Shown here in pieces: positions 27,901 to 33,900 of a stretch of DNA of 64,000 nt (its first letter is position 1; each line of letters starts with the position of its first letter). A program made the position numbers and the translations under genes. The notes beneath the pieces were generated by a model. That model ran no database searches. It saw nothing but the letters and a program-made list of their open reading frames with translations, and had not been told where the DNA came from. The stretch lies in the NCBI GenBank assembly GCA_964106915.2, contig OZ066929.1. One strand, given 5' to 3'. This DNA is from Podarcis gaigeae. Lineage: Eukaryota.

Positions 27901-30900
27901 TTCCATCTTCAATTTTAAGTGCTGGCTTTGACCCTAAAAGTCTTACTTAGCATTAGTATCTGAAGCAACATTCCCTCCCATATCTTTTATTTCTTTTCTT
28001 CTTCTTTTTTGTCTCATCATCATACCTTTTATTGGCATCACATACAAACATCCATAGTAAATCAATACAGAATTACCACCTCCCCTTCATTTGTCAAATG
28101 AAAAGAGGCAAAAAAAATCTAACATTACATCTCTAGGTCTCCGGGGAGATCAGGCGTCTGCAATGTGTTTCTGCGACCAAAAACCAAATAAAGATATTTA
28201 GCCACTAATTTGGTGAACTCCTGATCATTCCCCAGTAATAGAAAATGTATGACCTCCAACTCTGGTTTCCATTTGGTGATGCAGAGTTGATCTAGAAACT
28301 GCTGGTGGAGATCAGAATATAGTTTACATTTAAGAACCATGTGAGTAAGAGTTTCCATCAGGTGATCTTCACATGGGCAAATTCTTTCTTCTTCCACCAT
28401 TCCTGAGAACCTACCACAAAGGAGGTATGATGGGTTTGAATTAAACCTGGCCATCAAAAATGCCCTTCTTTCTTGAGGGATAAGCAGAAATTCAAGATAA
28501 TTATAATTAGTTTCATGTGCCCAAGAAAGCTGAAAGTAAAGAGGGGAACATGTTTTCTCTGCTGCTGCTGTTAGTTCCTGGCATTCAATGTCCCACAACC
28601 TAGTTTTTATTATAGACTTGGCAGATGGTGGAGGCATCAATCGCAAAAGTTCCATTGACAATCCAAGTTGCTGTACCTTTATGTTAAACTGTTGTAGCCC
28701 TGGGGAAAGAAAGGGGTCTGACAAGACCACCGAGGAAGGGATCTTTATCTAATGCGGGGTAGATGTTTAACCAACATAGAAGAAATCTCGCCCAGGCAAC
28801 GGTCTCTACCTTGTGTTGACCTCCCTCTAAACACAAGGCTGCATAGGGTGCACAACGTGGGACAGCAAAAATCTTAAAAAGGAAAGCTGCCTGCACTAGT
28901 TCTACCAACTGGGCAAACCCTGGCAGCCAGACTGGAATTCCATAGAGCAACTGAGCTATTATTTTGGCGTTGAGGGCCTTGAGGGCAGAGGGGATAGGCG
29001 AATTACCTCTTGTTATGAAAAATGGCATTATGGCCTGCATAGACATCTTACTGGCATTCACCGCTGTTGCACGGTACGAGCGCCATAGAAGCCTATGATG
29101 GAATGTAATTCCCAGATAGTTAAATTCAAATACCTGCTGGATGGGTTTTCCACCAAGTACCCAGCTATAGCTCTTGCGTGAATTCCCAAAAACCATTATT
29201 TTGGTTTTATCAAAGTTCATGCACAATTTCATTCTGGACAGATAGTCAATACAGGAATTTAACAATCGTTTTAGGCCAATTCTTGTCCATAAAAGCAAAA
29301 TCATGTCATTTGCGTATAGGAGAATGGGGATGCTTGATGCGTTGAGTTTTGGGTTATCCACCTGTTTTAGTGAAGAAGTGAGGTCATTAAGAAAAAGATT
29401 TAAAAGAGAGGGAGCGAGTACACAGCCCTGCTTTACTCCTCGGTTTATAATGATGGGATCTGTCATTACATTCCCCGGTGTTGTTCTTATATGAAAGGTG
29501 TTATTTGTATAAAGCTTTTTGATCAAGTATAGTAATCTAGGTTCTAGGCCCATTATCTCCAATTTGGTCCATAACAGCCCCCTGTCAACAGTGTCAAAAG
29601 TAGCCTTGATATCTAGGAAGGCCACATAAAGACATTCTTTATGAAGCCACGTTTACTTAGTGGCTAAGTGAGATGACACCATGCAGTTGCATAAAGTGGA
29701 TTTCCCTGGCCTAAGCCCTGCCTGCTCTTGGACCTATGATGTTATTTTCATCAAGCCAAGTAGTTAGTTTATTTAGCAGATGTTTAGCGCACCATTTCCC
29801 AATGTTTGACAATAGACTTATTGGCCAATAGTTGGATGGCAGCTTTTTGTCACCCTTTTTAAAGATTGGGATAATTATAGATTGCTGCCATGAGTTAGGC
29901 ATGATACCAGATCTATCTATCACAGTGAATAGATCCGCTAGTATCAGAGCCCACCACTCTGACATGGCTTTGATCAATTCAGATGGAATAGCATCAGGGC
30001 TGGCAGCCTTTCCTGCTTTCATCTGATCAATTAAACTTGTAACTTCGGTAATGGAGACAGGGGGCCACTCATTCGCGAAAGTAAAAATGGTATGGTCCTG
30101 ACTTTTCCAAGATGGCGGCCGAGACAGCAGCCTAGGCAGAGCTCCTGCCTTCAATAAAGCTTTTAAGTAGTTTTTAGCTACTTCCTGATTCTAATCTCAC
30201 ATTTTTAATGTCTTACTGGCTGTCTCATCGCCTCTCCTTGTTTTTAGTTTATTGTTTTATTGTTTTACCGCTCAACCTGATTTACCACAACAATGAACGC
30301 CCGATGAAACCTGCCTCTGTGACTGACTTGCAGTTTTGTCTACTGATTAAAATTTTCCATCCCCAGTTCAGAAACTGAACAAATCGTAAGTGACGAGGAT
30401 TGTTTTGGATTGTTCCGGGGGTCTTGACCCTGCCCTGATGCCCAAGAAAAAGCAGTTCTGTGCCAAGCCACTTGACCAGATCCAAATCTAAACGACTAAG
30501 TTTGACTGACTTCTCAGAATGGATAACTCCCAAAATAGCAAAGGGAGCTACTGATGGGCTAGGAACAAGTTCGGAAGTCCAAACGGAGGAGGGAAATAAT
30601 CTCCATGGCAGTGACAAACAATCCCTAGATAGTTCCAATTCTCGGCAGCTGGACAGTGACTGGCAAGATCCCCCCAAAGAGCTAAAAGGCCTTAGATCAA
30701 AAGGTTCAAAGAAAAACAGACCTACAGGAAAGCCCACAAAGATTAGAGCAACCCAAGCAGCTCAAAGTAACAGCCCATACCGCCATTCAAATAACATCTC
30801 AAAAGCTAACTAATCTGCCTGGAACAACAGAGTTATTTACTGGAGAACTGTTAAGCTTGATTGGTGAGCAAAGCCTTCTCACTGGAAGGTCTCTGGCGTT

Positions 30901-33900
30901 GATCTTCTGGAAGTTGGAGAGCATTGAGGATTGTGTGGCGAGGGGTCAGAAGGAGGAGAGCCTGGTGCAGTCCCCCGAGCCCCAAGGGAAGAATGCTGAG
31001 AATGCTCAACCAAGCAGGCTGGAGCCCTTCAATTCTTCAAGGAAAAGCACCCAAGATGCTCAGACAAAATTCTGGCCCTGGAACGTGACCAATGGCCCAC
31101 ACCCCACTAGAAAGTGTTTGCAGTTGGATCAGATAGTTTTGATCATCCGAAATAATTAGAAGAACAAAGAGTGCTGGATTACCAGACCAAGAGTTTGTTC
31201 TTCCTTATCTGATCTACTGCGATTAGACATAGGCTGTTTGGACCTAAAAAATGATAGAAAAATTGCCAAGCCACCCAAACGTAATTAAAACTGCTTCTCA
31301 AATTTCATAGCCATGCCATTCCCCTGCTGCTTCCCAAAATGTGTCGTTTTTAAAGTCGATTTCACATTTCAATTAGAAGGGTGTTTGCAGACTTGGGCGC
31401 TGTGCCTTTACTTTTGTGTGTGTCACACACCCCTACATTCAGAGAACAGTGCAAAAAAATAAAACAAGTAGGAATTTAATAAAAAAAATCAACGAATCAA
31501 AATTACGACATAGAAAGCAACATCTTAAAAACCAAATCCTTCAATTGACTTCTTCCAGCAACTTCATATAATAAAAAACTGGTTACAAGACACTCCTCTA
31601 TACATTAGGACCATCCAGAGTCTCCTTTGCAAATGTCCCTGCTACCTGAGGTACTGTGCGCGGTCATATGATCTAGACCAGCATTCACCCACTTGGTCCC
31701 TTCCAAACGTTTTGTTGACTACAACTCATCACCTGTGGCCATTGGCCATTCCAGCCAGGGGCTAATGATTGCTGGGAGTCTGAAACACCCACATGGCACC
31801 AAGATGGTGAGGGCTGATCGAGTCACTTCTTGGTAGTGATATGGCAGTTATGAACTTCCTACCCCAAAAATTTCCCTTGGCAACTTCTTTCAGCCTTTTG
31901 AAGGCAGATTGAAAACTTTTCCACTTCAGAGAGCTTTTAGCAGAGTTGCAAAGCTGGCTTGAACTCTCTTCTCTGGTGTTTTAAGAACAATGGAGAAGCA
32001 GGGAGCTAAGATGAGAGTGGTTCAATTGAGCCTCTCTTCAAATTGGGCTGCAAGAAATTAAACAAAGCTAACATGCATCACCAGAGGTAAGGCCACCTGG
32101 AACCTAAGACTATTTACTACAGAGGTTCCAGTACAGTAACTGTTGGAAGGAAGTGCCTCCTGGCTCAGAATCTGCTCCTTGTTGGATGCAGCAGAGATCA
32201 TGAAGCATCTGCATCTCTAAATGTCAATGGGAGAATGAGAATATCCCCATTCTTAATGTCAATTTGTGCTACAATTTATTTTTCCCCTTTATTTACTTTT
32301 TAAAAAATTGCTCATGTGCACTCTCTTCCTCCATATATGAAGGCACTTAGTTTAATTATACAGTGGAACAAATATAACTCATTCGCAGGGACTGAAAATT
32401 TTGGGCTTTCCCTGTGATGGGGGTGTGTGTGTCCCAATTAACAATCACATTAAACCTTAGTTTATTTTAAACTATGCTTTAAGATGAACAAGCAAATCAT
32501 GCTTCACTCCTTTCTTCAGTTTTCTAGGAAGGAAATAAAACACAGAGACATTAGACATGAACCAGCACTACTAACAAGCCATGACAGCAAGCCAAGAACA
32601 AACCTTGGTTTAACATTATGGTTAGGAGAGAAAAATCCCTAAGTGCTGACTCACACTTTAACATCAAGCCAGCCTCTGGTTTGTTTGTTCCCTCGTGCAC
32701 TGAAGAAAAGAACAGGGAAGCAGCAGCACTGGGATTATTGAACAACATGCACCACCAGAACATTACTCGTTCACTTCAACTCAGAATTTAAGATCTGTAT
32801 TGCATTGGCTTGGCAGGTTCAGATCTGCACTAACAGGATGCATAAGTCTAATCTAAGCTGTGGTTTAAAGCAGGTGAAAGAAAACTGTGGCCCTTCATAT
32901 GTTGCTGGACTCCAACTCCCAATATCTTGCTAGAGGTTGTGAGTCCAACAACATCCAGAAGCCCACAGGTTAGCAACCTCTGGTTTAAAACAACACAAGT
33001 ACTGGCCTTTCTACTGCTCATTTACTATTGCTTTTTATAATGACTAGGTCATGGGTAGGCAAACTAAGGCCTGGGGGCCAGATCTGGCCCAATCACCTTC
33101 TAAATCCGACCTGCAGACGGTCTGGGAATCAGCGTGTTTTTACAAAAGTAGAATGCGCCCTATTATTTAAAATGCATCCCTGGGTTATTTGTGGGGCATA
33201 GGAATTCGTTCATTTTTTCCCCTTCAAAATATAGTCCGGCCCCTCACAACGTCTGAAGGACAGTGGATGGGCCCCCTGCTGAAAACGTCTGCTGACCCCT
33301 GGACTAGGTTCATAGCAGGGTGCCAACAGACTTGCAAAAATACCACCAACTCACTTATCAAATACAAGTTAAAGGAACATTAATCTAATGTCATCTTCAC
33401 AGCTCTGTCCTCCTCTCATGAAAGTAAGATGCACACGAGGATGACAGCAAAACCTGCACTGCACTGGCCTGACATCTTCAGGTGCACCCTTGCTGCGCAG
33501 TAACAGGGTGCACAAGTTCCTTGTGTTTGTTGTTGCTCTGCAACGTCACACCTGCTAATTTAAGGCAGCCCCACCCATACCAGATGGAACAAGAACAAAA
33601 TGAATCTCTCAAACATATAAATGCCTAACAAGCCAACATGTTAACTCTGAGAGCCAGTGTGGTGTAGTGGGTTAGAGTATCAAATTAGGATTTGGGAGAT
33701 CAGGGTTCAAATACCCACTTGGCCACAAAGTTCACTGGGCGATCTTGGGGACCAGTCACTGCCTCTTAGCTTACCTCACCTCACAGGGTTGGTTTTGATG
33801 ATTAAATGGGTACCAGAACCATGTACACCACCTTGAGCTCCTTGGAGAAAAGGTGGGATATACATTCAATAAAATTAAATTAAAAAATGAGGGAGCCTTG

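Follow-up and report, generated by a model that had tools for sequence, protein, structure and literature searches.

A probably twin-primed, 5'-inverted LINE of a non-L1 family in a LIS1 intron of a vertebrate genome

The window analysed here is a 64-kb stretch (contig OZ066929.1 of assembly GCA_964106915.2; 418 N) that holds part of the gene LIS1/PAFAH1B1 and, inside one of its introns, a long interspersed nuclear element (LINE) split into two arms of opposite orientation. This intron is bounded by the first coding exon (32 nt of coding sequence at 37401-37432 on the minus strand, donor GTAAGT) and the LisH exon (26761-26845, minus strand), which matches the Pfam family LisH_PAC1 and encodes 28 residues, all identical to residues 12-39 of PDB 8pqw_B. 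The minus-strand arm (28013-30107) carries a reverse transcriptase (RT) and runs in the sense of the gene, and the plus-strand arm (30108-31410) carries a likely 5' untranslated region (UTR) and an ORF1-like frame. The host is a vertebrate.

The minus-strand arm is formed mainly by a remnant of open reading frame (ORF) 2, which extends from around homolog residue 460 to the stop (30107 down to 28125), matches Pfam RVT_1 with an E value of 1e-21 and shares 46-49% identity with seven APE-RT ORF2 proteins (P0001-P0007). The frame is disrupted by two frameshifts (near 29728 and at 28720-28740) and a stop near 29654, paralog contigs being one base shorter at 29728. YANDM replaces YADD, and a Cys/His knuckle, C-x-C-x7-E-x3-H-x4-C, is found at the C-terminus (28379-28326). 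The frame is followed by a 3' UTR (28034-28124) with a predicted hairpin at 28109-28078, the folding of which was no better than that of shuffled sequence (z -1.1), and by a 3' terminus (28013-28033) made up of AATAAA (28033-28028), AGGT and merely three ATG units plus AG (28023-28013), i.e. lacking poly(A). RT, knuckle and AATAAA-(ATG)n tail are thus all present on the strand on which the initial annotation had read them, and its statement that an endonuclease domain is missing also held, since tblastn with full-length homologs detected neither endonuclease nor linker anywhere in the window. All three ORF2 homologs scanned (P0001, P0002 and P0005) possess an APE endonuclease, which is deleted in the window copy; around 1,380 nt of ORF2 are missing in comparison with full-length P0001 and P0005. 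Between 28085 and 28118 the 3' UTR differs from that of most paralogs, as seen from contig loose ends and insertions, and the window copy therefore represents a minority subfamily. A loose end at 29849 was considered as flanking DNA and rejected, as it belongs to a diverged subfamily that is still readable in the ORF2 frame.

The plus-strand arm begins directly at the junction with the YY1-type motif CAAGATGGCGGC, which is found at 30108 and nowhere else in the 64 kb as a 12-mer, confirming that a plus-strand segment starts at this point. The likely 5' UTR (30108-30437) is 330 nt long up to the ATG at 30438, rather than the around 350 nt estimated earlier, and its CpG observed/expected ratio is 0.60 vs 0.26 window-wide. 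It is followed by the broken ORF1-like frame (30438-31410, plus strand) of around 320 codons with three frameshifts and several stops. A read-through translation of this frame (X at stops) matched the protein P0014 with an E value of 6e-7 among 1.84 billion proteins, and the tblastn alignment crosses a frameshift and reaches 31395, 16 residues short of the end of P0014, so that the C-terminal end is nearly complete relative to this sole homolog and the frame suspected earlier finds support in homology. In a paralog contig, 20 extra bases at 30455-30459 bring the ATG at 30438 in frame with the ORF at 30439-30810. By homology and frame, the stretch behind this ATG reads as a real coding remnant, while the label ORF1 follows from its position and from the anatomy of the element.

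Further searches with this arm returned little. No Pfam family was assigned to any of the ORF1 pieces or to P0013, and P0014 showed merely a weak match to ApoB100_C (E 0.18); a profile search returned P0014 alone, and none of 114 candidates was retained in a word-index search with the ORF1 read-through. In the JGI metagenomes a single query gave nothing, and further scanning gave nothing close, yielding 80 distant RT loci whose identity did not exceed 46% and was confined to short stretches; nothing there matched ORF1. No relatives were matched among viral contigs, the ESM Atlas gave no usable match, and the AlphaFold model of P0014 was of low confidence (predicted local distance difference test score 35.5). 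Another candidate homolog, P0015 (E 1e-4), was rejected as a chance match, i.e. a repetitive protein matched over 27 residues.

For comparison, contigs from four of 24 listed runs (X3, X4, X10 and X15), assembled independently and representing three studies and four organism labels, were aligned to positions 27600-32100 at 80% likeness. We used 15 listed joints and 32 listed pieces (a further 2,925 pieces lay outside this set), and 13 of the 15 joints, being same-strand skips of 13-458 nt, were left out of the argument. Fifteen of the 32 pieces were taken as orthologous, and these differ from the window by 0.3, 1.2, 2.3 and 4.1% in the four runs. The two arms meet 5' end to 5' end at 30107/30108, and contigs of all four runs span this point: record 21 of X3 (30023-30267, no differences), record 26 of X4 (one difference), record 2 of X10 (11 differences) and record 15 of X15 (60 differences in 1.5 kb). 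Because runs that are up to 4% diverged bridge the junction, the insertion is not a misassembly, and it is old and shared, predating the split of the four sampled organisms. An empty site was not seen in any of the four runs, none of the listed joints and pieces skipping the whole element, and within the window a second copy of either arm is absent according to self-BLAST and tblastn.

Summed contig depth, which is not equivalent to copy number, reaches around 330-630 times the single-copy level at the 3' peak and is still around 27 times that level just before the junction. Beyond it, the values are 4-29 times at the start of the UTR (bin 30167-30317) and 2-4 times over ORF1. This profile fits a family that is mostly 5'-truncated, in agreement with the earlier suggestion that the locus preserves the 5' UTR and ORF1 of such a family.

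With respect to the outer boundaries, a paralog of the plus-strand arm (record 8 of X10) matches up to 31410 and continues with 857 unlike letters. One base after this arm end starts the right copy of a candidate target-site duplication (TSD), CTTTTGT at 31411-31417, and the left copy, CTTTTTTGT at 28004-28012, differs from it by two T in the run. The copies have an exact core, TTTTGT (31412-31417 in the right copy), and CTTTT is also common to both, giving a span of 6 bp if exact and of 7-9 bp if a slip in the T run is allowed. In random trials, a match of 6 bp lying no more than 2-3 nt from each boundary arose in 0.9-2% of cases, and we regard the pair as a probable short TSD. The initial annotation had drawn the element from 28014 to 31416 and had noted TTTTGT near both ends without a clean TSD; the plus-strand arm ends around 31410 instead, and the core of the duplication is now seen to sit at the boundary defined by the paralog.

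Around the insertion there is an old remnant on the plus strand, presumably L2/CR1-like, that is apparently split into 27380-27983 and 31665-31940, has no Pfam match and shows CATAT at both borders. The LINE may therefore have landed in an earlier insertion of 280 bp (27984-28012 plus 31418-31669) within this remnant. Reading 31418-31669 as the 3' end of a separate LINE gained no support, this segment showing single-copy depth at 80% likeness.

Indirect evidence that the two arms belong together comes from two further joints. One of them, from 28064 to 30108, is present in two of the four runs (X3 and X10; sides of 35 and 33 nt, 11 letters in between). In it, the same CAAGATGG start stands back to back with the last approximately 50 bases of the RT family, TGGAATGGAAA separating the two. 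Its depth is 10.7 in X3 and 82.8 in X10, the depth over the intact junction is 10.7 and 150.2, and that of the flanks is 10.8-14.1 and 105-158, respectively. As joint and intact depth together exceed the flank depth, the joint likely represents another locus and not a deletion allele. Considering that the RT family makes up only around 0.015% of the contig letters (a rough value), it is unlikely that an unrelated element landed in it twice. The other joint, from 28078 to 29815, connects opposite strands in three of the four runs, i.e. an inversion within the RT arm, for which we infer a head-to-head orientation. Both are likely inversion-type joints at other loci, with non-inverted arms of only around 50-65 nt, and local self-similarity of at most 8 nt is too short to mimic either of them.

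The arms are also similarly distant from their paralogs (8.9-13.3% in the plus-strand arm, eight pieces; 9.0-9.5% in the RT arm, two pieces), so that the clear difference in age which, according to the initial annotation, would speak against a common origin was not found among these pieces. Based on the two joints and on these distances, both arms probably derive from one family.

At the likely second locus, 11 more purine-rich letters precede CAAGATGG. Mammalian L1s carry a short leader before the YY1 site, a motif found at L1 starts (available text of PMC5381506). By analogy, around 10 nt at the very start of the RNA are probably missing from the plus-strand arm of the window, and the earlier claim that the inverted cDNA had reached the true 5' end is then probably right to within this distance.

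Two side observations concern these joints. Position 28078 lies at the base of the hairpin predicted in the 3' UTR, which hints at stalling of the RT, yet the hairpin differs in most paralogs. Moreover, the X10 pieces at a depth of 83-85 (the joint from 28064 to 30108, records 3 and 8) have about half the depth of the best-covered contigs at the window locus, and may derive from a single locus, hemizygous or heterozygous, whose inverted arm exceeds that of the window copy by at least 857 nt; depth is the only link between these pieces.

Taken together, the locus was probably generated by a single non-L1 LINE family, the copy having been 5'-inverted by twin priming at insertion. In the model of Ostertag and Kazazian 2001, as cited in the available parts of PMC2912911, PMC4245944, PMC12016303 and bioRxiv 2024.08.27.596794, a tail-primed and an internally primed cDNA are joined at their ends (PMC2912911). 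The geometry of the locus corresponds to this, i.e. the arms are oppositely oriented with their 5' ends joined internally, the RT arm carries the tail, and the ORF1-like arm is directed away from the junction and has no tail at its end; tblastn found no remainder of ORF2 beyond 31410. After a nick made by the element's endonuclease in a T-rich target, priming of the first DNA end on the ATG-repeat tail would have led to a copy of around 2.1 kb, with synthesis stalling at 30107, a short way upstream of the RT domain. From the second DNA end, primed inside the RNA close to where ORF1 ends (31410), around 1.3 kb would have been copied back to within around 10 nt of the RNA 5' end (30108). Joining of the two cDNA ends would have cost at least 1.4 kb (end of ORF1, endonuclease and linker) and left a duplication of 6-9 bp. 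Such a copy would have been dead on arrival and fixed before the sampled organisms split, and would later have supplied a cryptic 42-nt exon that is likely included in some LIS1 transcripts.

Several points weigh against this interpretation. At 1.4 kb or more, the gap is around 100 times the median internal deletion of 14.5 bp in inverted L1s (bioRxiv 2024.08.27.596794), and in human L1 inversions the two ends lie within 20 bp in 46% of cases (PMC12016303). The inversion proposed initially is real and old, and its missing middle is untypical of L1 twin priming. The TSD of 6-9 bp is short in comparison with the 10-20 bp of inverted L1s, and short overhangs are thought to be incapable of priming (PMC4245944). 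Among the 15 joints and 32 pieces listed, no contig carries both arms collinearly, the direction of the joint from 28078 to 29815 is not given by the contig listing, and the comparison of ages uses two RT-arm pieces picked by hand from those listed. The large gap can be accounted for by a stalled first cDNA or by a second RNA molecule.

The latter leads to the main alternative, a chimera of two RNAs resembling inverted snRNA/L1 chimeras, in which the insertion was a single event but the second DNA end found its template in the RNA of another LINE family or in some other molecule. Both the size of the gap and the presence of only one TSD would be explained in this way. For U5, U1 and U2, priming of the top strand on a foreign RNA has been described with L1 (PMC4476161), and the linkage of ORF1 and ORF2 rests on indirect evidence, the contig bearing P0014 being only 1,424 nt long. 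We consider it rather unlikely, since at the likely second locus the same 5' start is again joined to the tail of the same family, and the two arms show similar distances from their paralogs; a second molecule of the same family would be indistinguishable and would leave the conclusion nearly unchanged. A normal full-length insertion that was inverted and partly deleted only afterwards by DNA repair agrees with the age of the copy and with a gap of at least 1.4 kb, which suits repair-associated loss. However, the breakpoint would have had to hit the 5' start of the element and to leave the TSD beside an internal end, the likely second locus uses the same start and all four runs show the rearranged form, which makes such a later event improbable.

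LINEs that target repeats exist, and an unrelated, possibly repeat-targeting (Tx1-like) LINE could have been inserted in opposite orientation into a truncated RT copy, followed by deletion of its 3' part. The YY1-type start, typical of L1-group elements (PMC5381506), is in line with such a nested insertion, whereas the tailless plus-strand arm, the lack of any remainder of the RT element beyond this arm, the absence of an L1-type ORF1 Pfam match and the use of unrelated places of the RT element as junctions (28064 and 30107) render it highly improbable. Finally, the 418 N in the window and the tendency of repeats to favour misjoins might raise the suspicion of an assembly artefact, a possibility that the initial annotation had itself raised; contigs crossing 30107/30108 in all four runs, independently assembled from three studies under four organism labels, refute it and leave it a negligible probability. 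Twin priming of one family remains our preferred interpretation.

As for its classification, the element is by sequence not an L1, because there is no L1-type ORF1 match and no poly(A), and because the likeness of P0001 to human L1 ORF2p is confined to the RT (significant solely over residues 468-798, 107 bits, with R2 proteins at 63-81 bits). A short tandem-repeat tail and a C-terminal Cys/His motif are traits of the RTEX (RTE-X) clade, and both are present in the window element. Membership of RTEX is plausible, since RTEX elements have a substantial ORF1 and RTE/BovB elements have none (available text of PMC3905857), the close RT homologs themselves carrying no clade name. The window element resembles RTEX, e.g. 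RTEX-2 of Anolis (named in PMC4476161), in the APE-RT ORF2 of its close homologs and in what is probably a substantial ORF1, and is unlike it in that no esterase or other Pfam domain was found in its ORF1 pieces.

When compared with twin-primed mammalian L1s, the locus shares the opposite arms with joined 5' ends, the tail on the non-inverted arm, the loss of the middle and an inverted arm whose internal end borders the candidate 5' TSD. It differs in its non-L1 ORF2 and ORF1, in a microsatellite tail instead of poly(A), in the sizes of TSD and gap given above and in an inverted arm that runs to the RNA 5' end. 5' inversions were seen only with L1 in human cells, with the exception of one Nimb-2_DR insert in chicken DT40 cells (as given in the available part of PMC4245944). 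The latter is likewise a non-L1 LINE with a 5' inversion, but a single event in cell culture, in contrast to the window copy, a fixed germline insertion that seems to represent one of several such copies within its family. In the literature found, no report of a 5' inversion in RTEX or reptile LINEs was encountered, and key papers lay outside the search, so that absence from print is not established; inversion is mentioned only in the references or not at all in PMC5389967, PMC6007223 and PMC13295347, and PMC11203168 and PMC5753468 gave clade context only.

The insertion may also have consequences for its host gene. The last 14 codons of ORF2 form a candidate 42-nt cassette exon (28129-28170, minus strand), flanked by AG at 28172-28171 and GT at 28128-28127, and splice sites and phase keep the LIS1 frame between the two coding exons. 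In X15, loose contig ends at 28170 and 28129 match the two LIS1 exons exactly (one contig each); these exon-joined ends show spliced RNA in this run, which we guess to be an RNA run. Judging by one contig per end in this one run, LIS1 transcripts thus seem to include the 42 bases as an in-frame exon, and it is quite possible that the cassette is mere splicing noise. As the LisH domain comprises residues 1-39 of LIS1 (PMC8955593), the 14-residue insert would fall at around residue 12, i.e. inside this domain. LINE-derived coding exons are known, such as Lyosin, a fusion of L1 ORF1 and MYL4 (PMC12129022), which shares with the LIS1 cassette the in-frame splicing of LINE coding sequence into a host gene; the cassette differs in consisting of 14 codons of the ORF2 C-terminus and in being a candidate from one RNA run. 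No report of such a LIS1 exon was found in the literature covered, key papers again being outside the search and absence from print not established. Elsewhere in the window, a WD40-encoding frame at 16280-16810 (minus strand) is likely a downstream LIS1 exon, and overlapping open frames of more than 200 codons on both strands at 58682-60003, with no convincing Pfam match, possibly mark a GC-rich promoter or first-exon region.

On its own, a single dead copy is of modest importance. More broadly, and only as a tentative speculation, a microsatellite-tailed non-L1 family might twin-prime routinely in a non-mammalian germline, its internally primed cDNA often running off the RNA 5' end and most of the few surviving 5' UTR-ORF1 copies being inverted, and the window copy might in addition have given LIS1 a regularly spliced 14-residue LisH insert. 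In one comparative test, nearly all 5' inversions occurred with L1 in human cells, and they were tied to overhangs of 10-20 bp (as far as the available part of PMC4245944 goes). The possible LIS1 cassette would break up the LisH domain, in a protein that is identical to the human form over the LisH exon. The family is mostly 5'-truncated, and the inverted arm probably preserves its promoter region and ORF1. Routine twin priming in this family would, if true, contradict the rule by which L1, host factors of the human type and a long overhang are required for 5' inversion.

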